A stretch of 64,000 nucleotides of DNA, from positions 4,634 through 68,633 of the forward strand of contig JBDRON010000102.1 in NCBI GenBank assembly GCA_043810025.1, read 5' to 3'. Below the pieces are notes generated by a model. It had not been told where the DNA came from and searched no databases. It worked only from the letters and a program-made list of their open reading frames with translations. Position numbers and translations under genes: made by a program. The DNA comes from Elusimicrobiota bacterium. Its GTDB lineage: Bacteria; Elusimicrobiota; JBDRON01. This document shows positions 18,945 to 33,596 of the stretch, piece after piece; positions within the stretch are counted from its first letter, which is position 1; every line of letters starts with the position of its first letter.

Positions 18945-19889
18945 ATGCTCAAAGTAGAAAATCTTTCGAGAAATTTTGGGCAGGTGAAGGCGCTGGATAA
19001 TGTTTCCTTTGAAGTGAATAGGGGGGAAATTTTGGGTCTGCTTGGCCCTAACGGCGCCGGAAAGACGACGATGATGCGGATTATCACTTGTTTCCTGCCG
19101 GCCGGTGCGGGAACAGTCAAGGTTGATGGCTTGGATGTTTTCGAGGATTCCATGAAAGTCCGGGAAAAAATCGGTTATTTGCCGGAAAATCTTCCCATTT
19201 ACAACGACTTGTCGGTCCAGAGTTATTTAAATTATGTCGCCGAAATCCGCGGGATCGAAAAATCCCGTCGTCCGCAGGCGGTAGAGAAAGCGATGGAGAT
19301 GGTCAATGTTGCCGATAAAAGAAATCGGCTAATCGGTCATCTGTCCCGCGGCTACAAACAACGGGTGGGGTTGGCTCAGGCGATCATTCATAATCCGCCT
19401 TTGTTAATTCTTGACGAGCCGACGATCGGTTTGGACCCGAAGCAGATTATTGAAATCCGCCGGCTAATCAAAAGTTTAAAAGGCGAACATACGATTATCC
19501 TCAGTTCCCACATTCTGCCTGAGGTCAGTATGACTTGCGATCGGGTGGTGATTATCGATGAAGGCAAAATTGTGGCGATTGATACCCAGGAAGAGCTGAC
19601 TCATCAGGTAAAAGGGGCGGAAAAAATTTTCGTTAATTTAAAAACCAACGGTGATCCTTCCGTAGAGGAAAAAGTTGCCGCTTTGTCCGGGGTAGAGAAG
19701 GTGGAGGGCGAATATAAAGAAAGTTTTTGTTCGCTCACCATCGGCTGTCAAGCTCATCAGGAGATTCGGGAAGCTTTGTTCAGGATGGCGGTAACCAATA
19801 ACTGGGTGATTTATGAACTGCGGCCGATTCGGGTCAGTCTGGAAGAAATCTTCTTGCGGTTAACTACCGAAGAACAGGGGGTAAATTAA
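18945..19889 (+). CDS. ABC transporter ATP-binding protein (GldA-like)
   Basis: GPNGAGKT, LSRGYKQR, LILDEPT, SSH. Confidence 0.93.
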   Translation: MLKVENLSRNFGQVKALDNVSFEVNRGEILGLLGPNGAGKTTMMRIITCFLPAGAGTVKVDGLDVFEDSMKVREKIGYLPENLPIYNDLSVQSYLNYVAEIRGIEKSRRPQAVEKAMEMVNVADKRNRLIGHLSRGYKQRVGLAQAIIHNPPLLILDEPTIGLDPKQIIEIRRLIKSLKGEHTIILSSHILPEVSMTCDRVVIIDEGKIVAIDTQEELTHQVKGAEKIFVNLKTNGDPSVEEKVAALSGVEKVEGEYKESFCSLTIGCQAHQEIREALFRMAVTNNWVIYELRPIRVSLEEIFLRLTTEEQGVN

Positions 19890-19890
19890 A

Positions 19891-20601
19891 ATGGATAAAA
19901 TTTGGGCGATCGCCAAAAAAGAGTTCTACTCGTATTTTGTTTCACCGATTGCTTATATCGTTCTGGCGATGTTTCTGGTGATATCCGGATATTTTTTCTG
20001 GATTATTCTGGTTTATACCCAGCAGGCGGATTTGCGCGGTTTGCTGGCCAATATGGCGGTAATCCTGGTTTTTGTCAGTCCGATGATTACCATGCGCTTG
20101 ATTGCCGAAGAAAAAAAATCGGGAACAATCGAATTTTTGTTTACTTCCCCGATTCGGACCATCGATATCGTGTTGGGAAAATATTTGGCTTGTCTGGGGC
20201 TGTTTTTTGTCTTAGTGTTAATTACCGGCGCCTATCCGATAATGTTAGGGATCTTTGGTAATCCCGACTGGGGTCCGATTATTACGGCTTATTTAGGTTT
20301 TATTTTTCTGGGGATGACTTTTTTAGCGGTCGGTTTGTTTGGCTCCAGTTTAACCGAAAACCAAATCGTCGCCACCGTGATCAGTTTTACGATTTTATTG
20401 TTACTCTGGATAATTTCATGGGTTGGCGACATCGGCAGCGGCAGTAAGCTGGCCGAGTTTTTGAGCAATATTTCGGTTTTTGGCCATTTTGAAGATTTTG
20501 CCAAAGGGGTAATCAGCACTACCCATATTTATTTTTATCTGGCCGCAACTTTCTTCTTCCTGTTTTTAACCACGCAGGTTTTAGAGAAAAGACGCTGGTG
20601 A
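19891..20601 (+). CDS. ABC-2 permease (GldF-like)
   Basis: TMRLIAEEKKSGTIEFLFTSP, VLGKY; 6 TM segments. Confidence 0.88.
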   Translation: MDKIWAIAKKEFYSYFVSPIAYIVLAMFLVISGYFFWIILVYTQQADLRGLLANMAVILVFVSPMITMRLIAEEKKSGTIEFLFTSPIRTIDIVLGKYLACLGLFFVLVLITGAYPIMLGIFGNPDWGPIITAYLGFIFLGMTFLAVGLFGSSLTENQIVATVISFTILLLLWIISWVGDIGSGSKLAEFLSNISVFGHFEDFAKGVISTTHIYFYLAATFFFLFLTTQVLEKRRW

Positions 20602-20612
20602 ATATCTCGATG

Positions 20613-20716
20613 TTCCCTCTCCCCTTGTGGGAGAGGGCAGGGTGAGGGGTTGATAAGCAAAGGAATTGAATCTTTAACACCCTCACCTTAATCCTCTCCC
20701 CTCAAGGGAGAGGAAA
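20613..20716. repeat. Family-B palindromic doublet
   Basis: ttccctctccccttgtgggagagggcagggtgagggg...ccctcaccttaatcctctcccctcaagggagagg. Confidence 0.85.
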
Positions 20717-20749
20717 TGGCGTAGCATTACTCATTTAAGTAAGGAGGGG

Positions 20750-22375
20750 TTGAAGATGGAGAAGAAAAAAGAGTATCAGAGCTGGCTGGGGATGGCTGGG
20801 CTGGTTCTATTCGGGATATTTCTGGTCAGCTTGCTTTTTGTGGAGAAGATGGGTTTGTTTTGGGGTGGTATCGGCCTGTTGGGGGGAATACTGCTGGTTG
20901 TTTATCTGATTTTGCATAGCCAGGATCTGAAAAATATTCTTCAGGGGCGGGCGATTTTGTTGGGGACCAACGCTGTGGTCTTGAGCTTGGCGGTGCTGGG
21001 GGTATTAATTTTTTTAGGGGTAATCCTCACCCGCCATCCCTGGAGTTATGATACGACGAAGGTAAAGTTTTATACTCTATCCGAGCAGACTAAACAAACC
21101 TTAAAAAAATTGCCGGAGAAAGTTAAGTTTACCACTTTTTTTAAAAAAGGTTTAATCCAGGAAATGCAGGTCAAAGATTTGCTGAAAGAATATAAAAAAA
21201 TCGCTCCGGAGAAAGTGGAGCTGGAGTTTGTTGATCCTGACCAGAATATTAGTTTAGCTAAACGCTATAATATTAACGCCTATAACACCACTGTTCTGGA
21301 ATGCGGAGCTAACCGCAAGGATATAACGGAACGAGAGGTTTTTGTTTATTCCGCGCAAGGATATAACTATGGGCAGCAGCCGAAGACGGAATTTAACGGT
21401 GAACAGGCTTTTACCAGCGCCCTTCAGAATGTGATCGGTCAGGAGAAAAAAACAATTTGTTTTATGGAAGGGCACGGTGAACGCAGTATCGCTTCCGCCA
21501 ACACCGAACGCGAAGGGATTAGTCAATTAAAGGTTCAACTGGAGAAAGAAAACTATACGGTTAAAAGTTTTAATGTCTTAATTGAAGGCGAGATCCCGGC
21601 GGATTGCAGTGTTTTAGCGGTGGCCGGCCCCAAAGGGGCGCTGGGAGAAAAAGAAGTTCAACTGATTGATCAATATTTAAACAACAGCGGTAGGGCGATA
21701 TTTCTTTTGGAGCCGTTGGCTGATTCCGGGCTGAGTAAGGCGGCTGGAGATTGGGGAATTAAAATTGATGATGATTTTGTTCTTGATCCGGCCAGTTGTT
21801 ATTTTTTTGACGCGGCTTCACCGATCCCGGCTTATGTTGATCACGAAATTACCTCTCTGCTGCGCAAAGAGGGCGCGGCGGCGGTATTTTCTTCAGCGAG
21901 AAGCGTTAGAGAAGGGGAAAAGAAAAAAGAAGGAGCGGTTGTCCGGACAATTTTGGAAACCAGCCGGCAAGGCTGGGGGGAAACAAATTTGACGACGAAA
22001 GAGTCTAAATACGATTCGGCCTCCGATATCGCCGGCCCGCTGTCGCTGGCGGTTGCCGCGCAGTGGGAGATCCCCCGTAGCACGACCACACCGGAGATGC
22101 CGAAAGAAGCCCGCTTGGTAATTTTTGGCGATTCCGATTTTGTTTCCAATAAAATGATTTCAATTCGAGGCAACATTGATCTTTTCCTGAATTCAGTAAA
22201 ATGGTTGATCGGCCAAAAAGAAGGAATTACCATCCGGCCGAAATCGCCGGATATTCGCACCGTCTATCTTTCTAAACTGCAGGCCAAAGTAGTATTTTAT
22301 GTCTCGATCTTCCTGATTCCTCTGGGAATATTACTGGTCGGCGGAATTGTTTTCTGGCGCCGAAGATCGCTGTAA
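20750..22375 (+). CDS. GldG-family ABC auxiliary/periplasmic component
   Basis: YDTTKVKFYTLSEQT, EFVDPD, GHGE, RLVIFGDSDF, NIDLFLNSVKWL, C-terminal TM plus WRRR. Confidence 0.88.
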   Translation: MKMEKKKEYQSWLGMAGLVLFGIFLVSLLFVEKMGLFWGGIGLLGGILLVVYLILHSQDLKNILQGRAILLGTNAVVLSLAVLGVLIFLGVILTRHPWSYDTTKVKFYTLSEQTKQTLKKLPEKVKFTTFFKKGLIQEMQVKDLLKEYKKIAPEKVELEFVDPDQNISLAKRYNINAYNTTVLECGANRKDITEREVFVYSAQGYNYGQQPKTEFNGEQAFTSALQNVIGQEKKTICFMEGHGERSIASANTEREGISQLKVQLEKENYTVKSFNVLIEGEIPADCSVLAVAGPKGALGEKEVQLIDQYLNNSGRAIFLLEPLADSGLSKAAGDWGIKIDDDFVLDPASCYFFDAASPIPAYVDHEITSLLRKEGAAAVFSSARSVREGEKKKEGAVVRTILETSRQGWGETNLTTKESKYDSASDIAGPLSLAVAAQWEIPRSTTTPEMPKEARLVIFGDSDFVSNKMISIRGNIDLFLNSVKWLIGQKEGITIRPKSPDIRTVYLSKLQAKVVFYVSIFLIPLGILLVGGIVFWRRRSL

Positions 22376-25453: not shown

Positions 25454-26554
25454 ATGAGAAGAGTCTTCCAGTTGTTTAAAAAAGAATTTTTGCAGTTGAA
25501 AAGAGACAAACGCTCTTTGGCTTTTTTTATGCTGATGCCGGCGGTTTGGCTGGTGGTTTTTGGCTACGCCCTGACTTCCGATATCAAACATATCCCCACC
25601 GCGGTTTTTGATGAAGACGGTCATTTTTTAAGCCGCGAACTGGTGGCCGTTTTTCAGAATTCAGAATATTTCGATATTCAGTATCAGGTAACCTCAGAAG
25701 AAAAAATCAGCTATCTGCTGGATAAAGGCCAGGTTAAAGTCGGGTTAATTATCCCCGGTAATTTTTCCCGGAATTGTTTAGCCTTAAAAGGCGCGCAGGT
25801 GCAAATTTTAATTGATGGTTCGGATCCCAACACGGCCGGCTCGGCGCTCAATGTGGGCAACGCCTGCGTGAAATTTCTTGCCGAACAGATTTCCGGACAG
25901 ATCAAGATCCAGCCGATCGAAGTCCAGCCGCGGATCTGGTATAACCCGGAGCTGCGCAGCGCCAATTTTATGATTCCTGGTTTGATCGGTTTGATTTTGC
26001 AGATGTTAATTCCGATCATGACCGGGGTGGGGATAGTTAAAGAAAGGGAGCGGGGAACCATTGAGCAGTTGATCACCACCCCGATCAAAGCCTGGGAGTT
26101 GATTTTGGGTAAACTCCTGCCCTACATGACCATCGCGATCGTCGTGGTCGCGGTGGTGACGCTGGTGGGCGTAGAAGTTTTTATGGTCCCAATTAAAGGG
26201 AACATTTTTTTCTTCGCTTTAGTTGTTTGTCTATTTCTTCTGCTTTGTTTAAGTCTGGGTCTGTTTTTTTCCACGATCGCCCAGAATCAACTGCAAGCCT
26301 TCCAGATGGTCGTGTTGACCGGTGTTCCCTCCATTCTTCTATCCGGACTACTCTTTCCCCGGGAAGCGATGCCCAAAATCATCTATTATCTCGGCTATCT
26401 GTTGCCGCTGACTTATTTTATCAATTTGGTCCGCGGCATATTTTTGAAAGGACTCGGTCTGTTTTACCTCTGGGATTCCCTGCTGGTTCTCTTGATCTTC
26501 GAAATAATCCTAATGACCCTAAGCATAAAAAAATTTAAAAAGAAACTCGGCTAA
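25454..26554 (+). CDS. ABC-2 type permease (YbhR/YbhS-like)
   Basis: KKEFLQLKRD, IDGSDPN, RIWYNP, KERERGTIEQLITTP; no adjacent ATPase. Confidence 0.88.
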   Translation: MRRVFQLFKKEFLQLKRDKRSLAFFMLMPAVWLVVFGYALTSDIKHIPTAVFDEDGHFLSRELVAVFQNSEYFDIQYQVTSEEKISYLLDKGQVKVGLIIPGNFSRNCLALKGAQVQILIDGSDPNTAGSALNVGNACVKFLAEQISGQIKIQPIEVQPRIWYNPELRSANFMIPGLIGLILQMLIPIMTGVGIVKERERGTIEQLITTPIKAWELILGKLLPYMTIAIVVVAVVTLVGVEVFMVPIKGNIFFFALVVCLFLLLCLSLGLFFSTIAQNQLQAFQMVVLTGVPSILLSGLLFPREAMPKIIYYLGYLLPLTYFINLVRGIFLKGLGLFYLWDSLLVLLIFEIILMTLSIKKFKKKLG

Positions 26555-26607: not shown

Positions 26608-26667
26608 AATTTTGTTCCAATTATTATTTTATTTGCTATAATGTGGGATATTTGCTATAATGCGGGA
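26608..26667 (+). repeat. Left 41-bp direct repeat plus 19-bp tandem duplication containing an extended -10 (TGCTATAAT)
   Basis: aattttgttccaattattattttatttgctataatgtggga (26608-26648) identical to 33135-33175. Confidence 0.9.
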
Positions 26668-26699
26668 GATGAAAAAAAAATTCTGCGAGGAGGGGTAAG

Positions 26700-27485
26700 A
26701 TGTTTAATACCAGACTGTTTGTTGTCGTAATTTTGGCCTTCTTTATTTTTGGAGGTTGTGGGAAGAAAACAGAGAAGTTGGAAATTAGAAATCACTATAG
26801 TCAGGGCAGGATTGATAATCTTTCTGCTCAGGAATTAGAGTTGGAGAAAACCATCAGGGAAGCCTCCAAACTTCCTGCGGCGATAGAATATGCCAAAGGG
26901 ATGTTCGAGGCTGCTTATCTTATTGCTGAAGAACATAGAGATCTTGGCTTTACTGTATATTTTAAAGATCAGGAATTGATCGTTGAACGAGGTCTTAAGA
27001 CATCGCTGGAACCAACTTTAGTTGTACCTCTGTCTGACCAGGGAATTTTTAATGCAAAATTATTTTTTGATGACGGGATGATTAATGAACAAGAAGAGTT
27101 CCTGATTGTTAATGCCACTTTTAAACCTGCCTGGGAAGCCTCGTATCGAATAACGGAGATGCAAAATTACGGGATCAGAAAATTAATGAAATTAGATGGG
27201 CTGATGCATGTGGTTTTATTGAATGAGAAAAATTATGAATTTAAGGGTAAAGTAGTGAAGAATGAATTATCCGTATTAAGGCTCAGTAATCAATGGCTTG
27301 TTTTTAATGGTTTGGAGGGGATAGCCGATGTGAGAATGGAGATAACGCCTAAACATTCGATCGCCATGTATAAATTGATCATGAATGATCTTAAAAAGTC
27401 CCAATCTTTAGCAGAAAAAATGAAGATACTGAAAAAATTTCAGGAAATTAGAAACAGATGCCTGGTAAAAAAATCTCTAATATAA
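26700..27485 (+). CDS. Hypothetical lipoprotein
   Basis: Hydrophobic signal plus IFGG|C lipobox; SD gaggagg. Confidence 0.7.
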   Translation: MFNTRLFVVVILAFFIFGGCGKKTEKLEIRNHYSQGRIDNLSAQELELEKTIREASKLPAAIEYAKGMFEAAYLIAEEHRDLGFTVYFKDQELIVERGLKTSLEPTLVVPLSDQGIFNAKLFFDDGMINEQEEFLIVNATFKPAWEASYRITEMQNYGIRKLMKLDGLMHVVLLNEKNYEFKGKVVKNELSVLRLSNQWLVFNGLEGIADVRMEITPKHSIAMYKLIMNDLKKSQSLAEKMKILKKFQEIRNRCLVKKSLI

Positions 27486-27489
27486 ATCA

Positions 27490-28344
27490 ATGTTTATCCT
27501 TCAGATGGTTGATTCTTTACGTTTAGGGAAAATATTTTCCATCCTACTCGGAATAATCACCATCTCCTTGTATTCTTACGGATCTGTCCATAGCCTGACT
27601 GTCGAATCGATATTGCTAAATTTGATCATCAGTTTAGCGTCTTTATTTTTTCTTCTTTCCGCGGGTTATTTGATGAACGATTACTGCGATATCCAATATG
27701 ACTTAATTAATAAACCGGAGAAAGTTTATCTTACACGATTCGTCTCCCGGAAGTTGGCGCGCTATATTTCCGGAATATTTTTTGTTGTTGGCCTATTAAT
27801 CGCGGCAGCGGTGAACAGATATTTTTTTATCTGGTATATTTTCGACACATTGGGATTAATTTTTTATAATTTGCAGGGGAAAAAGTTCTATTACTTGAAA
27901 AGCGTGCTTGTTTCTTTATTAGTTGTGTCCATTTATCCGCTTTCCCTGGCTTTAACTTCTAATGGTTTTGATTCACCGCGCCGGGACTCGCTATTGATTT
28001 TCCCGTTCTGGCTTTTTCTGACGATTTTTGCTTTTGAATTAATGCAGGATATCAAAGATTTTGCCGGCGATCAGATGTATCAGGCAAAGACTTTACCGGT
28101 GAAGATAGGGATTTTTAAAACCAGAAACTTAGCCACAATCTCAGCTTTGGCGGCAATTCCGGTGGCTTTTCTTCCCTACTATTTTGGACAATGCGGCGGG
28201 ATCTATTTGTGGGGATATTTATTGGTCACGCCCATTTTAATTGGGACAATGTTTCTGAATAATAAAATATTTTCCTGCGGGTTATTTTTTAGCATTTTAG
28301 GCATCACGGTGGCTTCCTTATTTGATATAATGGTGATTAAATAA
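27490..28344 (+). CDS. UbiA-superfamily prenyltransferase, DGGGP-synthase-like
   Basis: MNDYCDIQYDLINKPEK and ELMQDIKDFAGD...KTLPVKIG Asp-rich motifs; about 8 TM. Confidence 0.85.
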   Translation: MFILQMVDSLRLGKIFSILLGIITISLYSYGSVHSLTVESILLNLIISLASLFFLLSAGYLMNDYCDIQYDLINKPEKVYLTRFVSRKLARYISGIFFVVGLLIAAAVNRYFFIWYIFDTLGLIFYNLQGKKFYYLKSVLVSLLVVSIYPLSLALTSNGFDSPRRDSLLIFPFWLFLTIFAFELMQDIKDFAGDQMYQAKTLPVKIGIFKTRNLATISALAAIPVAFLPYYFGQCGGIYLWGYLLVTPILIGTMFLNNKIFSCGLFFSILGITVASLFDIMVIK

Positions 28345-28346
28345 TT

Positions 28347-29558
28347 ATGAAACAGATTGCCGGATTTAATAAATATCTTTACCTGTGCAAAGCCTTCTTC
28401 AACTGGAAAATTAGGGAACTACCTTGGGAATTCATTCTCTTTATGATTAAGCAGATGCGCCATGAAAAAATTACTCTCGATGATAAAAGAATATTTATTA
28501 ACACTACTTATACCCCATTTCCTTCACCAGCCTTTGATACAGCGATTAAAACATTTGTCAGTTTATCGAAGGGTAAAGCGATTCCTTTTTCCGTTTTTAT
28601 CTCGCTTACTAACCGTTGCCCGCTGGATTGCTGGCATTGCAGTAAGGTCAGCGGAGAATCCCACGAGATCAGTTTCGAAACTCTATCCGGGTTAATCAAA
28701 CAATTGCAGCTGCTGGGTGTTTGCTGTATTGGTTTTACCGGTGGCGAGCCGGCCTTACGCGCTGATTTGGAAAAATTAATTGCCGAAGTTGATAACCGTT
28801 CCTACACACTTTTGTTCACTTCCGGTTATTTGATTAATCAAGAACGGGCCAGGGAATTGAAAAAATCGGGACTAACCGCCATCGTCGTTAGTCTGGATTC
28901 TCATCTTCCTGAAGAGCATAATCGCCTGAGAAAATCCGAGAAAGCTTTTGCTGATGCTGTGGCGGCAATAACCGGTTCTTTAACGGCCGGCATTTATACG
29001 GCAACATCCCTGGTAATTTCCCGGGAAATGCTTTATTCTGATAAAATAGATGATTATATCCGCTTTGTCTCCCAACTGGGAGTGCAGGAAATAAGAATCC
29101 TCGACCCCAAACCTTGTGGTAAATTAATGAATACTACAGGAGAAATGTTCGATGAAAATGATGCCGCTAAACTCCGGGAAGTTCAGCATCAGGTGAATCA
29201 GAACAATAAATTGGCCAAAATTATGGCGCTAAGCCAAATTAATTCTCTGGGGAACTACGGCTGCAATGCCGGACGAACCCATCTCTATATTAATGCTCAC
29301 GGCGAGGTCTGTCCTTGCGATTTTGTGCCGCTTTCCTTCGGCAACATTTTAACAGAAGATTTCCAGACAATTTATCTGAGGATGAATCAGTTTTTCCCCC
29401 GGCCGGCGTATGGTTGTATCATTTCTAAAATTCATCAACAAATTAATCAGTCGGCAAAAGGGCAATTACCGATCAAGGATTTGCCGACCATTGAAAATTT
29501 GTTAGGCCAGGTTGGACCAAGACCAGTACCAAAATTATTCGAGAAATTAGGAGGATAA
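28347..29558 (+). CDS. Radical SAM enzyme with SPASM/twitch domain
   Basis: CPLDCWHC, TGGEP, GCNAGRTHLYINAHGEVCPC. Confidence 0.9.
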   Translation: MKQIAGFNKYLYLCKAFFNWKIRELPWEFILFMIKQMRHEKITLDDKRIFINTTYTPFPSPAFDTAIKTFVSLSKGKAIPFSVFISLTNRCPLDCWHCSKVSGESHEISFETLSGLIKQLQLLGVCCIGFTGGEPALRADLEKLIAEVDNRSYTLLFTSGYLINQERARELKKSGLTAIVVSLDSHLPEEHNRLRKSEKAFADAVAAITGSLTAGIYTATSLVISREMLYSDKIDDYIRFVSQLGVQEIRILDPKPCGKLMNTTGEMFDENDAAKLREVQHQVNQNNKLAKIMALSQINSLGNYGCNAGRTHLYINAHGEVCPCDFVPLSFGNILTEDFQTIYLRMNQFFPRPAYGCIISKIHQQINQSAKGQLPIKDLPTIENLLGQVGPRPVPKLFEKLGG

Positions 29559-29559
29559 A

Positions 29560-30007
29560 ATAAGTAAAGTAAGCAGCAGGCCGATTACTTGGATTATTGC
29601 CGTTATTTCTGCAGTAGTTGGCGGTTTTATGGGAGGGTTGCTTGGCAGTATAGGCGGGGGGCATGATCCAATGGCAATGGTTCTACGTATTTCTGGTCTG
29701 ATCAGTGGTTTTGCGGTCGGTTATTATTATGTGCATTTTACTCTAAAGGATAAGACTAAAATAATTCGTAATGGTACTATTTATGGAGGTATCGCTGGTT
29801 TAGCTTTCTGGCATATCGGTTTGGATTCCGGTAATAGTAATTTCAATAGTAAGGATGTTTTTCGATAAAGATCGAACAATTGAAATTGGAACACTTGTTA
29901 GTGTCACATCTGGGGCAATCATAGGAGCATTATTCGGAGTTGTCATCGGACTTGTTTTAGGATTGGTATTATCTCTCTTTCTTGCCTTTGAGGAAAATGG
30001 TGACTGA
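29560..30007 (+). pseudogene. Frameshifted glycine-zipper membrane protein (about 148 aa if repaired)
   Basis: AGGAGG followed by ATA at 29560; open frame to TTT 29805-07; +1 frame continues SGISVWIPV...GALFGVVIGLVLGLVLSLF to TGA 30007. Confidence 0.6.
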
Positions 30008-31082
30008 AGTTTTTTTTAAAAATACCTCTAGCCTCTGTCCGATTTGCCGGGAAGAAATTAAGGCTCAGCTTTTTCAAAAAGAAGGCGGAATCATGATCGC
30101 TAAAGAGTGTCGTTTACATGGGCAATTTAGCGCTCTGGTTGATCCCGATGCTGATTTGTATCGGCAAGCAATATCTCACCGGCAAAAAAGAGGAGAAATT
30201 CCCTTTGCGACGGTTATTCCCGTTACCCAAAGATGCAATTTAAAGTGCCGCTGGTGTTATTTACCGGAAAGAGGAAGTGAACCGGAGATAGCGGCGATTA
30301 AGAAAATAATTGAACGGTGTCAGTCCAAATTTATCGTTTTTTCCGGTGGAGAACCAACCTTAAGCACAGATTTGTTTGAATTAATTCGTTATCTAAAAGC
30401 AAAATATTCGGCGAAGTCGGCGGTCCTGCTGACCAACGGCCTTAAACTTGCCGATGCGGACTATTGCCGCGAACTGAAAAAAGCCGGCTTGGACTATCTT
30501 GTTTTTTCCTTTAATGGTTTTCGCCCGCAGACTCATCAATATTTTAATCATCAGGATTTGCTGCCCTTAAAATTAAAAGCTTTAGAAAACATTAAAAGAT
30601 TGAAAATCTGGACAATACTGTCCATGACTTTAGCCAAAAATGTTAACGAAGATGAGTTGTCAACGGTGTATCAATTTAGTTTAAATAATTTGGATTTTGT
30701 CCGGCAAATCAGACTGCGCAATGTTTCCGAAATTGGCATTTATCAGAAAGGAAAGCTTCTTTATCTTTCCGATTTGATTAAAATAGTTTCTCAGGCCAGC
30801 GGGATTTCCCTTGCAGAGATGTCGAAGAATAATGCTAATTTTAATCGCTTCAACAAAACCGCTAACTATTTTGTGCTGAATATAAAAATGCCATATAGCA
30901 AACAAAACACGTCAGTTGTTGAGAAAGTAAATTTTCGCCTGGAGATTTTTTTCTGGCCGACGCTCTTAAATATCGATTTGCGCCAATGCCGCCTTTTTAA
31001 TATTGATCATTTAACCAATACTGGAGAAATTTTGCCTTTCTGGGAAGCCCTTTATCAAAATGAAAAAAAGTTTGTGGGTTAA
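29997..31082 (+). CDS. Radical SAM protein with a Tes/MJ0619-like N-terminal metal-site domain
   Basis: TSSLCPIC...IAKECRLHG; CNLKCRWC; SGGEPT; LLTNG; C-terminal GEILPFW. Confidence 0.8.
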   Translation: MVTEVFFKNTSSLCPICREEIKAQLFQKEGGIMIAKECRLHGQFSALVDPDADLYRQAISHRQKRGEIPFATVIPVTQRCNLKCRWCYLPERGSEPEIAAIKKIIERCQSKFIVFSGGEPTLSTDLFELIRYLKAKYSAKSAVLLTNGLKLADADYCRELKKAGLDYLVFSFNGFRPQTHQYFNHQDLLPLKLKALENIKRLKIWTILSMTLAKNVNEDELSTVYQFSLNNLDFVRQIRLRNVSEIGIYQKGKLLYLSDLIKIVSQASGISLAEMSKNNANFNRFNKTANYFVLNIKMPYSKQNTSVVEKVNFRLEIFFWPTLLNIDLRQCRLFNIDHLTNTGEILPFWEALYQNEKKFVG

Positions 31083-31929
31083 AATTATCCGTCCTTTTAT
31101 TTCCCTTTTGGCCGGCTTACTTAAATCCCCGGTAAATATTTATCAAATGGATTTTGACCGGTGCGCGGAAACTTATGATTCAGCGGCTACCAGGAATCTG
31201 CTGGGAGGAATTACCGCTGAATTAATCAAAAAATTAGATTTAAAATCCGGCTGGCGTTGTCTGGAATTGGGTTGTGGCAGCGGAGAAGCGACAAAAATAA
31301 TTGACCGGTTGATTCAACCTAACGGTTCCCTGAAGGCCTGTGACATCTCGGAAAAAATGATTAATGCCGCCAAAGCAAAATTTGCCGCAGATAATTCAGT
31401 AACTGAATTTGTTCAGCAAGATATGGTGAACTTTTTGCAGGAATGCCCGGCTAATTATTTTGATCTTGCCGCTGGTTTCTGGTCGATTGATTACAGCGAT
31501 CCTAAAAGAATACTATCCGAGATTAAGCGTGTGCTGGTAAAAAATGGAATGACGGCGATGCTGGTCAATACTCAACAGTCTTTGCTGGAATTGCAGGAAA
31601 TTGTTGTTCCGCTATTGCTCAAGCACCCTTTTGCCTTAAAGTGTTTACCCGGAATAAATTTCCCCAGAAGCGCTAAATTCTTTAAAAAACTTACGGAAGA
31701 AGCCGGACTTGTTTTGGAGAGCATGGAGAATAAAAAATGCCAATATTGTTTTCAGTCCGCTGAGGCCGTAATGGTTTGGATGAAAGAAGGCGGTCCTTGC
31801 GCCGGTTTTCGCGGGGCCTTAAAAGAAAAATATCGGGAACATATCTTTGAGCATATTCGGGAAAGAATAGAGCGTAAAGGTAACCTTACTGTTACTTTTG
31901 ATTATTTAGTTTACATCGGTAAAAAATGA
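31060..31929 (+). CDS. Class I SAM-dependent methyltransferase
   Basis: CLELGCGSG motif I; ACDISEKM; FDLA. Confidence 0.88.
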   Translation: MKKSLWVKIIRPFISLLAGLLKSPVNIYQMDFDRCAETYDSAATRNLLGGITAELIKKLDLKSGWRCLELGCGSGEATKIIDRLIQPNGSLKACDISEKMINAAKAKFAADNSVTEFVQQDMVNFLQECPANYFDLAAGFWSIDYSDPKRILSEIKRVLVKNGMTAMLVNTQQSLLELQEIVVPLLLKHPFALKCLPGINFPRSAKFFKKLTEEAGLVLESMENKKCQYCFQSAEAVMVWMKEGGPCAGFRGALKEKYREHIFEHIRERIERKGNLTVTFDYLVYIGKK

Positions 31930-33065
31930 TTAATCAGCCAAAAACATTTAGGGGCCGCTTAAATCGTTGGAAAACAAAAGCGTTAATTACCGCTCAGGAT
32001 TTTCTCTTGCCGACATTGGGGGAGGCAAAACCCGGCTCATTTTGGCAATCGTTGATCAGAAATTTTTCTCAAAAATTTATCGGCGGCTACCCTTATGTAA
32101 TTAAGCTTGATCTGACCAATCGGTGTAATCTGAAATGCAAAATGTGTTATGCCGCCAACGACGGAACTGCATTGTCTTTTGAGAAAATAATTGAAATTTT
32201 AAGCCAGTTCCACAATGTCCCAATCCGGCTGGATTTGTTAGGCGGCGAACCGTTAATGCGCGATGATCTTGTCGAGGTTGTTAAATTTGCCAAAGCAAAA
32301 ATTAGGGTTAAGCAGATTGTCCTTTTTACCAATGCCACTCTGATGACGGAGAAACTGGCCAATAATTTGTTTTTGGCCGGTGTGGACAAAGCCTTGGTGA
32401 CTTTTATTTCCTTCGATGCTCAAAAACACGACGCTTTTACCGATGTCCCGGCTTCCTGGGGTCAAGCGATAGAAGGGATTAATCATCTTGCTAAAGCCGG
32501 CATCAAAACGCATACCTTTACGGCGCTGCACCGGGAAAATATCGGCGATTTTGAGCAAATAAATAAGTTTGTTCAAAATAAACTCAAACTTCATCCGCTT
32601 TTTTATCAATATGTGCCGCAGAGAAAAAATGATCCACTTTCACCGGATCCAAACGATTGGCAGAAAATAAAAAACCAAATTTTGTCGGCCAATGCCGAAC
32701 ATTTCCGTTACATCAAAAGAGTTCTTACTTTTTACGGAAGGATCTGTTTGGGGGGACATTACTCATTTTCGATTAAGACGAACGGCGGTGTCACTCCCTG
32801 TCCGTTTATTCGCGATCCGGAAATCGGTAATGTCTTTAAAGAGAATTTTTGGGACATTTTTGCTCAAAGATTCGCCAAGGAAAAATTTAGGAAATTTATG
32901 AGTTTACCTGAAGAATGCCGTAAATGTTCAATTAAAAATTTTTGCGGCGGCGGTTGCCGAGCGGGAAATAATTTGACTGATGCCGGTTATTCAAGATATG
33001 ACGATAGCTGTCCCGGACCATCTTCAGAGCCGGTTTCAATAAATACTTTACCGACCTTTTTTTAG
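31926..33065 (+). CDS. Radical SAM/SPASM protein
   Basis: CNLKCKMC, GGEPL, CLGG...VTPCPF, ECRKCSIKNFCGGGCRA...C. Confidence 0.9.
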   Translation: MINQPKTFRGRLNRWKTKALITAQDFLLPTLGEAKPGSFWQSLIRNFSQKFIGGYPYVIKLDLTNRCNLKCKMCYAANDGTALSFEKIIEILSQFHNVPIRLDLLGGEPLMRDDLVEVVKFAKAKIRVKQIVLFTNATLMTEKLANNLFLAGVDKALVTFISFDAQKHDAFTDVPASWGQAIEGINHLAKAGIKTHTFTALHRENIGDFEQINKFVQNKLKLHPLFYQYVPQRKNDPLSPDPNDWQKIKNQILSANAEHFRYIKRVLTFYGRICLGGHYSFSIKTNGGVTPCPFIRDPEIGNVFKENFWDIFAQRFAKEKFRKFMSLPEECRKCSIKNFCGGGCRAGNNLTDAGYSRYDDSCPGPSSEPVSINTLPTFF

Positions 33066-33134: not shown

Positions 33135-33175
33135 AATTTTGTTCCAATTATTATTTTATTTGCTATAATGTGGGA
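33135..33175 (+). repeat. Right 41-bp direct repeat / promoter of the DUF2062 gene
   Basis: Identical to 26608-26648; includes TGCTATAAT, followed by gATG. Confidence 0.9.
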
Positions 33176-33176
33176 G

Positions 33177-33596
33177 ATGAAAGGATTTTTCTACGGGAAG
33201 CTTGTTGAGCCGATAAAAATAGCTTATCAAAAGCTCTTGCGCCTAAACAATACGCCGCAGGAAATTGCTTTCGGGTTTGCGGTGGGGGCGTTTATCGGTG
33301 TTTTCCCGACTTTCGGGTTAGGCGGTTTGTTGATTATTGGGTTGTGTTATTTGTTCCGCCTAAATTATGTCGGGGCGGCGGCTGGGGCGGTGATTATCAT
33401 GAATCCGCTATCTTCTCCTTTGTTCTGGGCGATTAGCGCCTGGGTTGGGGGGCTGATTTTTTCCCGGGATGCGGGGATAATTATTGCTTCCTTAAAGAAC
33501 AAAACTTTGTTTAAGCATCTGGACGATCTGGCCGTTGTTTATCTGACCGGCAATCTGATTATCTCCCCCTTATCGCTGTTATTTCCTATTATCTAG
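33177..33596 (+). CDS. DUF2062-family membrane protein (C-terminus probably continues to 33652 in the -1 frame)
   Basis: TPQEIAFGFAVGAFIGVFPTFG...NPLSSP; -1 frame reads LIAVISYYLVKKIIKSRRR. Confidence 0.8.
   Translation: MKGFFYGKLVEPIKIAYQKLLRLNNTPQEIAFGFAVGAFIGVFPTFGLGGLLIIGLCYLFRLNYVGAAAGAVIIMNPLSSPLFWAISAWVGGLIFSRDAGIIIASLKNKTLFKHLDDLAVVYLTGNLIISPLSLLFPII

Follow-up and report, generated by a model that had tools for sequence, protein, structure and literature searches.

A rare operon joining a DGGGP synthase-like UbiA enzyme and a reduced tetraether synthase-fold radical SAM protein in uncultivated groundwater bacteria

Introduction

Many ether and membrane-spanning lipids of sediments and groundwater have no known producer, and the bacterial enzymes behind such lipids are only starting to emerge. 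The closest described systems to the one reported here are archaeal lipid enzymes. The tetraether synthase Tes (GDGT-MAS) carries two [4Fe-4S] clusters beyond that of its radical S-adenosylmethionine (rSAM) core, the C-terminal one of which (three Cys and one Met) is the proposed site at which the first radical on the substrate is held (PMC13459092 section 2.1), and rSAM enzymes with a SPASM domain can also act on lipids, as Gms does on glycerol dialkyl glycerol tetraethers (GDGTs) (PMC13459092). Digeranylgeranylglyceryl phosphate synthase (DGGGPS) belongs to the UbiA superfamily, the whole of which shares the Asp-rich motifs 1 and 3 and the Y-x4-K motif 2 (defined in PMC9385802), and whose enzymes, according to a passage of the same source citing Hemmi 2004, tend to group by acceptor type. 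Here we describe a seven-gene operon at positions 26700-33065, plus strand, of a 64,000-nucleotide stretch of an Elusimicrobiota genome (assembly GCA_043810025.1, contig JBDRON010000102.1, positions 4,634 to 68,633 of the forward strand; 'the window' below means this whole stretch), in which genes for a Tes-fold enzyme, a DGGGPS-like UbiA enzyme and SPASM-type rSAM enzymes lie side by side. The operon is real, rare and uncharacterised, and it is common to a few uncultivated groundwater bacteria. We see about an even chance that it encodes a so far undescribed route to a tailored isoprenoid (prenyl) membrane lipid, one that uses reduced relatives of archaeal lipid enzymes yet is distinct from the archaeal pathway itself.

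Results

A conserved gene set without room for a precursor peptide

The seven genes are co-oriented and tightly packed, as follows.

26700-27485, plus strand: g1, lipoprotein without a Pfam or NCBIfam match
27490-28344, plus strand: g2, UbiA-family membrane prenyltransferase
28347-29558, plus strand: g3, rSAM enzyme with a partial SPASM/twitch-type C-terminal domain, member of the five-gene core
29560/29629-30007, plus strand: g4, small Gly-rich membrane protein, split by a frameshift
29997-31082, plus strand: g5, 'mini-Tes', a Zn_ribbon_HMPTM domain followed by an rSAM domain
31060-31929, plus strand: g6, class I SAM-dependent methyltransferase
31926-33065, plus strand: g7, rSAM enzyme with a canonical SPASM domain, found only in the seven-gene version

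The first reading needs correcting in two places: g4 is split by a frameshift, and the true start of g5 is the ATG at 29997. Successive genes are separated by 4, 2 and 1 nt and then overlap three times, which leaves no space for a precursor-peptide gene. The hallmarks of ribosomally synthesised and post-translationally modified peptides (RiPPs) were also sought directly: a small conserved open reading frame (ORF) is found in none of nine loci, and a profile search for a RiPP recognition element (RRE) or PqqD domain found none. With both the precursor gene and the RRE absent, a RiPP maturase system was rejected. A first-pass annotation of the window had described seven tightly coupled genes lacking a precursor peptide and had held that a want of conserved co-occurrence elsewhere would refute its reading; gene calls, spacings and the conserved gene set bear out the former, and the synteny search shows that the cassette is conserved.

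The gene set is kept in at least nine other genomes, more than chance would explain (four Omnitrophota, four Elusimicrobiota and one unclassified species genome), as well as on metagenome contigs, with the same neighbours on all contigs examined, and identity to the window proteins across cassettes is 52-65% for g1, 42-52% for g2, 50-60% for g3, 43-52% for g5 and 37-44% for g6. Two versions exist. The five-gene version, which occurs in Elusimicrobiota, runs lipoprotein, UbiA, first rSAM/SPASM, Zn-ribbon rSAM, methyltransferase; g7 is absent genome-wide from all four genomes that carry it. The seven-gene version, found in Omnitrophota and one unclassified metagenome-assembled genome (MAG), runs methyltransferase, second rSAM/SPASM, lipoprotein, UbiA, first rSAM/SPASM, small protein, Zn-ribbon rSAM. 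The window cassette is this seven-gene set in circularly permuted order, in an Elusimicrobiota host. In the Omnitrophota MAG DeMMO3_15 (L005, 2067-4073) the methyltransferase and the second rSAM/SPASM enzyme form a single 668-aa ORF, through fusion or frameshift, and its second half does not keep the register of its orthologues.

The cassette is very rare. A pattern-based scan of 185,579 species genomes, its pattern derived from a 17-sequence alignment, found true orthologues of g5 in about 9, though divergent copies may have escaped it. The lipoprotein g1 is present in 4 of 401 sampled Elusimicrobiota genomes and in 1 of 401 in the Omnitrophota sample, and its profile matches 78 clusters among 1.84 billion representatives; g1, g2 and g5 each form a small, tight family. 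Full-text literature searches, and the Tes, Mss and Gms papers and reviews, yielded no description of the gene set.

A UbiA subfamily nearest to DGGGPS in genomes that lack GGGPS

The sole PDB sequence match of g2 is Methanocaldococcus jannaschii DGGGPS (6M31, 5e-11), and its top five NCBIfam matches are DGGGPS-clade models (four equivalog families); the chlorophyll synthase, EboC, UbiA and HPT models score only 30-36 bits. Alignments with 6M31 and with orthologues show the conserved motifs NDxxDxxxD, YNxxxK (Y-x4-K) and ExxxDxxxxxGD...TLP, and the likeness to DGGGPS takes in the INKP motif, the DxxDxxxGD...LP form of the last motif and a similar length of ~280 aa. The two differ in that g2 reaches 98 bits against a cut-off of ~296, has no RPLPSG segment, contains its own RRDSL block (within a subfamily-specific invariant stretch, SIYPL...RRDSL) and resides in a genome without a geranylgeranylglyceryl phosphate (GGGP) synthase, or GGGPS, as partner. 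The nearest relatives outside the cassettes are Bacteroidota DGGGPS-like proteins of at most 32% identity. Judged by its motifs and profile matches, g2 is a distinct UbiA subfamily, nearest to DGGGP synthase.

The GGGPS/PcrB family (PF01884), which makes the GGGP to whose sn-2 hydroxyl DGGGPS transfers GGPP, has no match in any of the nine cassette genomes; the control search with the same model passed the cut-off in 5 of 14 named control genomes (archaea and Bacillus were detected) and gave weaker matches in 2 more. No geranylgeranyl reductase scores over its cut-off in the cassette genomes. With GGGPS absent and no reductase passing, the canonical archaeal lipid pathway was rejected.

A CrtE-like short-chain prenyl-diphosphate synthase gene lies directly upstream of the cassette in three loci (L004, L005 and L008, Omnitrophota copies, of which L004 and L008 seem to be one sequence). 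The enzyme has no aromatic residue at position -5 of its first Asp-rich motif, which under the chain-length rule points to geranylgeranyl diphosphate (GGPP), and it is thus GGPP synthase (GGPPS)-like. The window genome itself encodes the following prenyl-chain enzymes outside the window, and therefore probably makes menaquinone.

C19 26317-27285: MenA-like UbiA enzyme
C34 16130-17122: long-chain prenyl-diphosphate synthase
C62 2154-3050: IspA-type farnesyl diphosphate (FPP) synthase

g5 has the Tes fold and lacks the auxiliary-cluster ligands

The best PDB sequence match of g5 is GDGT-MAS/Tes (7TOL, 1e-35), and its AlphaFold model (predicted local distance difference test, pLDDT, 92.6) superimposes over the whole query on 7TOL with a query-normalised template modelling (TM) score of 0.83 (Foldseek, E 1e-29), the next-best structural match being MoaA at 0.51. 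The rubredoxin-like site (C19, C22, C43 and H46, numbered in the ORF from 29982; PF23545 at 5e-13) and the rSAM CX3CX2C motif (C85, C89 and C92) are invariant in 28 sequences. The likeness to Tes (7TOL/7TOM, NF045702) therefore covers the rubredoxin-like 3Cys+His site, the rSAM core and the fold including its C-terminal domain. The two differ as follows: g5 is ~360-410 aa long against ~490-530 aa for Tes, its hosts are bacteria without GGGPS and without a geranylgeranyl reductase over cut-off, and the ligands of both further clusters are missing. The ~38 residues between H46 and C85 hold no conserved Cys that could correspond to the [4Fe-4S]N ligands (3Cys+His, CxxxCGxC region of Tes), and in the 28-sequence alignment no family-conserved Cys follows C92 to supply [4Fe-4S]C. 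Since both auxiliary clusters are absent, g5 cannot use the cluster-sulfur-assisted double C-H activation of Tes, and membership of Tes proper was rejected on the missing ligands. As modelled, g5 is a Tes-fold enzyme whose metal sites are reduced to the rubredoxin-like one and the rSAM cluster.

The top NCBIfam name for g5 is TrsS, catalogued solely as an uncharacterised selenoprotein family. The published survey of bacterial Tes required E<1e-50 and took only sequences >400 aa into its tree (PMC8941075), thresholds under which the g5 family would have been missed. More distant relatives (30-40% identity) occur as tandem paralogue pairs (L102 6794-9209 and L103 5111-9194), and one is fused to a B12-binding rSAM enzyme (965 aa). 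These relatives lie in rSAM-rich clusters with ABC transporters and a PMT_2 glycosyltransferase, a family annotated as using polyprenyl-phosphate-linked sugar donors; the L103 cluster also holds a Peptidase_U32 gene.

The SPASM enzymes, and what they say of archaeal-type lipids and tetrapyrroles

In g3 the rSAM motif (C91/C95/C98) is followed by a partial SPASM motif (C306, C322, C324 and C357; PF13186 at 2e-7), and the six further conserved cysteines in all (127, 257, 306, 322, 324 and 357) would be enough for at least one auxiliary cluster. The full seven-Cys SPASM motif of g7 (C274, C292, C331, C334, C340, C344 and C362; PF13186 at 9e-9) predicts two auxiliary clusters. The named NCBIfam matches of both proteins (GeoRSP, NirJ2, AhbD, PqqE, SkfB) are generic and far below the cut-offs. 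Gms, the archaeal glycerol monoalkyl glycerol tetraether (GMGT) synthase, is a precedent for a SPASM rSAM enzyme working on an isoprenoid chain, and g7 has the full seven-Cys motif; the best named matches of g3 and g7 are the generic ones above.

If g5 were a tetraether synthase and g3 and g7 were Gms-like, the products might be glycerol ether lipids, archaeal-type or hybrid, which are then joined tail-to-tail or cross-linked to give macrocyclic or membrane-spanning forms. That g2 is nearest DGGGPS, that g5 has the Tes fold including the rubredoxin-like domain, that Gms is a SPASM rSAM enzyme acting on GDGTs (PMC13459092) and that a GGPPS-like gene adjoins the cassette in Omnitrophota all speak for such a product. 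It is nevertheless unlikely, as none of the nine genomes encodes GGGPS/PcrB, no geranylgeranyl reductase exceeds its cut-off, the ligands of both Tes auxiliary clusters are missing from g5, which scores 147 bits against a 450-bit cut-off, and g7 is missing altogether from the five-gene version. The resemblances on which the first-pass annotation had built are sound: the UbiA enzyme does point to the DGGGPS branch (6M31 its only PDB match, DGGGPS its best NCBIfam models), and the Zn-ribbon/rubredoxin-like N-terminus and the fold (TM 0.83) do place g5 near Tes/GDGT-MAS. The absence of GGGPS that it had noted within the window extends genome-wide and to all nine cassette genomes. The stronger form of its reading, archaeal-type etherification with Tes-like cross-linking, is not supported, given this absence, the lack of a reductase over cut-off, enzyme scores three- to five-fold under the cut-offs and a g5 without auxiliary clusters.

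The same SPASM matches could be read as tetrapyrrole or cofactor chemistry, with NirJ/AhbD-like rSAM enzymes, a UbiA enzyme like chlorophyll or heme O synthase and a BchM-like methyltransferase yielding a prenylated heme-like cofactor. The best NCBIfam matches of g7 and g3 do include NirJ2, AhbD and AhbC (1e-32 to 1e-19), g2 matches BchG/ChlG weakly (36 bits) and g6 matches BchM at 8e-6. These scores, however, lie 4-6 fold below the cut-offs, and peptide maturases match equally well, as expected of generic SPASM similarity; CtaB/CyoE is not listed among the 12 NCBIfam families matched at E<=0.01, the Tes fold of g5 is unrelated to tetrapyrroles, and tetrapyrrole genes adjoin the cassette in no locus. 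We regard a tetrapyrrole product as very improbable.

The methyltransferase and the orphan lipoprotein

Over its full length g6 matches the BioC/Tam type (carboxyl O-methyltransferases), with weaker matches to UbiE over the SAM-binding half only and, in the PDB search, weakly to JHAMT.

No gene of the cassette is better conserved than that of the lipoprotein g1 (52-65% identity), a member of an orphan family. The protein has a signal peptide and a lipobox [AGS]-G-C whose Cys20 is invariant in 29 of 29 members, and LPAM_1 matches. Its model (pLDDT 86.5) has an alpha/beta fold for which about 29 of the top 35 Foldseek PDB matches are entries of the sterol carrier protein 2 (SCP2) type, UbiJ-SCP2 among them. 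SCP2 membership at the sequence level was rejected, since the 29 members give no profile signal. The structural matches of the predicted fold are thus mostly weak ones to the SCP2 carriers (UbiJ/UbiT and SCP2 itself), from which g1 differs in being exported whereas UbiJ and UbiT are cytoplasmic. The analogy of g1 to the mycobacterial lipid-ferrying lipoproteins LprG and LppX is functional only and lies in a lipoprotein anchor at the periplasmic face. The C-terminus (27459-27485) is a conserved, CaaX-like R-x-R-C-[LMI]-x-K tail with its Cys 4-9 residues from the end, for which no known function was found. A remote homologue (E 1e-47 to the g1 profile; L105 5741-14795) lies among three rSAM genes (one B12-binding), a GH3 acyl-adenylate enzyme and a Peptidase_U32 (the UbiU/UbiV family).

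These two proteins bear on another possible product, a prenylated redox lipid, a quinone-like compound made without O2, in which the UbiA enzyme acts on an aromatic head group, a UbiE-like enzyme methylates it, the rSAM enzymes build or modify the ring and g1 serves as a UbiJ/UbiT-like chaperone. Quinone synthesis by the futalosine pathway already involves rSAM enzymes; g6 matches UbiE/MenG models (1e-15 to 1e-9), UbiJ-SCP2 is among the structural matches of g1, and the remote g1 homologue stands beside rSAM genes and a Peptidase_U32. We nonetheless hold a quinone-like product to be decidedly unlikely. On DGGGPS models g2 reaches 98 bits, against 32 for UbiA_other and 30 for HPT; g1 is an exported lipoprotein, unlike the cytoplasmic UbiJ and UbiT; the UbiE matches span only the SAM-binding half of g6 and that to BioC its full length; a MenA-like enzyme and a long-chain synthase are already encoded elsewhere in the genome; and ring-forming enzymes were not recognised.

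It might also be asked if the substrate is a protein, with the enzymes modifying g1 itself, at a near-invariant Cys254 in its R-x-R-C-L-V-K CaaX-like tail, or an unseen peptide. SPASM enzymes commonly modify peptides and proteins, g1 is the best-conserved gene and has that Cys 4-9 residues from its C-terminus, and prenylation combined with carboxyl methylation parallels CaaX processing. On the other side stand the lack of a precursor ORF and of an RRE domain, the lipid-enzyme fold of g5, a Cys254 that is not strictly invariant across the 29 members, and the separation of g1, which has a lipobox and leaves by the Sec route, from enzymes of the cytoplasm or membrane; moreover, we know of no UbiA-family enzyme that prenylates a protein. 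Modification of a protein or peptide is the least probable of the readings considered here.

Flanking duplication, promoter and lateral acquisition

The cassette is bounded by a direct repeat, and the features of its flanks are as follows.

26608-26698, plus strand: upstream copy of the duplicated DUF2062 5' region, holding the 41-bp identical block
33135-33200, plus strand: downstream repeat copy, the native promoter-like region and first DUF2062 codons
33177-33596, plus strand: DUF2062 membrane protein, neighbour 3' of the cassette, start likely ATG 33177 or 33168

The repeat units at 26608-26648 and 33135-33175 are identical at 41 of 41 nt, and weaker similarity runs over ~85 nt in all. The 41-bp sequence has only these two copies in the 2.38-Mb genome, and integrase or transposase genes are absent within 8 kb on either side of the cassette; with two copies and no mobility gene near, a repeat family or mobile element as its source was rejected. 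The DUF2062 gene probably does not start at the upstream TTG 33081, and because it is unlinked to the cassette in all other genomes it is a neighbour that lies outside it. In the upstream copy a 19-bp tandem re-duplication of the TTGCTATAAT element (26633-26661) sets the TTGCTA of one copy 17 nt before the TATAAT of the other, with a TG extension, so that the full -35/-10 pair (TTGCTA-17-TATAAT) is present in the upstream copy only; the single downstream copy, whose TGcTATAAT element (33162-33169) overlaps the first DUF2062 codons, lacks it. A mini-ORF at 26660-26698, preceded by a GAGGAGGGG Shine-Dalgarno sequence, is a decayed relic of the first DUF2062 codons and ends 1 nt before the g1 ATG. 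The cassette thus appears to be enclosed by a duplicated promoter and 5' end of DUF2062, the footprint expected from a recombination-mediated insertion, and this duplication would supply the promoter of the operon. Sigma-70-like sites in the region number 21 against a shuffled expectation of 19.5, with no excess, which leaves where the TGnTATAAT element lies, and the fact that it is duplicated, as the sole grounds for the promoter reading.

Composition sets the cassette mildly apart. The cassette has a GC content of 39.8% and the genome one of 43.0%, which puts the cassette at the 10.8th percentile of genome segments of equal size; GC at third codon positions (GC3) runs from 0.33 to 0.45 across its genes and is 0.57 in each of the two flanking genes. 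A concatenated tree has a long branch (0.65) that splits off the Elusimicrobiota clade, and the window cassette falls on its Omnitrophota/MF1 side. The patchy distribution, the GC3 deviation and an Omnitrophota-type cassette in an Elusimicrobiota host together suggest lateral transfer, and the window cassette was probably acquired in this way. No empty site was found, the nearest SpoIID orthologues (58-63% identity, from another family) showing no synteny and no relative of the same family having been compared. The AT-richness claimed in the first-pass annotation is accordingly real though modest, and its 41-bp bounding repeats are identical throughout and unique in the genome to these two sites. 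That the pathway is portable can be upheld in part: patchy distribution, deviant GC3, flanking repeats and the Omnitrophota-like cassette type agree with it, while a nearby mobility gene and an empty site were not found.

Directly upstream of the cassette lies an ABC-2 permease gene (RbbA C-terminal-like, 25454-26554) without an adjacent ATPase gene, and a separate GldA/F/G-like ABC set is found at 18945-22375 of the window.

Integrity of the window copy

Two genes of the window copy look damaged. Homologues of g4 in the other seven-gene cassettes are ~130-150 aa long and match one frame up to ~29802-29850 and the next frame beyond; the frameshift lies between ~29810 and 29868, with a T5 run at 29857-29861 as the candidate site; the first part has no ATG, GTG or TTG start, an ATA at 29560 after GGAGG being plausible, and the second ends in a TGA at 30005-30007 that overlaps the start of g5. 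This frameshift could be real decay or a homopolymer assembly error. In g5, ~35 residues that are present in 27 of 27 aligned homologues are missing at ~30885-30930 (residues ~303-316); the absent segment is helical or amphipathic and precedes a conserved EIFxWP block, and the model has a low-confidence loop at 303-316.

It is unlikely, though worth some weight, that this genome's copy is a decaying, laterally acquired remnant whose product is no longer made. The frameshift in g4 and its want of a canonical start, the g5 deletion, the absence of GGPPS from the genome and the position of the window on a long branch in the cassette tree are all in keeping with decay. Against it, the remaining five genes are undamaged and no catalytic motif is missing from them, the five-gene version does without g4, the g5 model stays confident in the surroundings of the deletion, the frameshift, being close to a homopolymer, may have arisen in assembly, and the operon is preceded by a duplicated promoter.

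Discussion

A prenyltransferase, a Tes fold, radical enzymes, a methyltransferase, a lipid-carrier-like lipoprotein and an occasional GGPPS, with no peptide, are together what leads us to favour a tailored isoprenoid lipid that is passed towards the periplasm. That the product is a lipid is supported by the SCP2-like lipoprotein, by the GGPPS-like synthase adjacent to several Omnitrophota copies and by the lack of a peptide gene, and the PMT_2 context of the distant g5 relatives and the rSAM/GH3/Peptidase_U32 context of the remote g1 relative are supporting hints. In the pathway that we propose, g2, whose donor-binding Asp motifs are intact, would transfer a C15-C20 prenyl group from FPP or GGPP to a membrane-bound acceptor. 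The likeliest acceptor would be a glycerol-phosphate lipid that offers a free hydroxyl group, for example lyso-phosphatidic acid; GGGP cannot be made here and UbiA enzymes cluster by acceptor, which argues for a glycerol-phosphate lipid other than GGGP, and this is the weakest step of the model. The unsaturated prenyl chain might then be held by g5 in a Tes-like pocket and undergo chemistry based on a single hydrogen abstraction, for instance radical addition to a double bond leading to cyclisation or a C-C linkage, with g3, and g7 where present, contributing further radical tailoring or electron handling. The product would be methylated by g6, probably at an O or carboxyl group, and g1, at the periplasmic face, may bind the hydrophobic product in an SCP2-like cavity and pass it outward.

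Several results weigh against this proposal. Every cassette enzyme scores three- to five-fold below the cut-off of its nearest family: the best NCBIfam score of g2 is 97.7 bits, short of cut-offs of 269-353 (NF009521 and related), and g5 reaches 146.6 bits with NF045702, short of the 450-bit cut-off. The RPLxSG segment that follows motif 1 in DGGGPS and most UbiA enzymes is missing from g2. The structural match of g1 to SCP2 is weak (probability up to 0.98, best E 4e-3, target TM 0.35-0.49, over about half of g1), the Pfam SCP2 families give no match among the 29 members even at E<=10, and the two halves of g1 show no detectable similarity that would indicate an internal duplication (hhalign probability 0.5%). 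A periplasmic lipoprotein working with cytoplasmic enzymes would need a flippase. Lastly, the window genome has only an IspA-type FPP synthase and a long-chain synthase and no GGPPS, and the frameshift in g4 and the internal deletion in g5 mean that the window copy may not be fully functional.

Whatever its product, the cassette joins a DGGGPS-derived prenyltransferase with a naturally minimised tetraether synthase fold in bacterial hosts from which the remainder of the archaeal pathway is missing. The mini-Tes is a natural test of what the Tes fold does without its auxiliary clusters, the orphan lipoprotein may point to a new periplasmic route for isoprenoid lipids, and the five-gene core is small enough for heterologous expression and lipidomics. 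A bolder form of the proposed pathway, which we put forward as a long shot, is that a few uncultivated diderm bacteria among the Omnitrophota and Elusimicrobiota make a new class of isoprenoid glycerolipid without GGGP synthase, in which the DGGGPS-derived enzyme would etherify a bacterial lyso-phospholipid with an unsaturated C15-C20 chain, the mini-Tes would join or cyclise chains by radical addition to a double bond, and the SCP2-like lipoprotein would carry the product to the outer membrane. If such a class exists, its chemistry would be a simpler and possibly ancestral form of that of tetraether synthase, and the pathway would naturally bridge the bacterial/archaeal 'lipid divide' and become a candidate origin for orphan environmental lipids.

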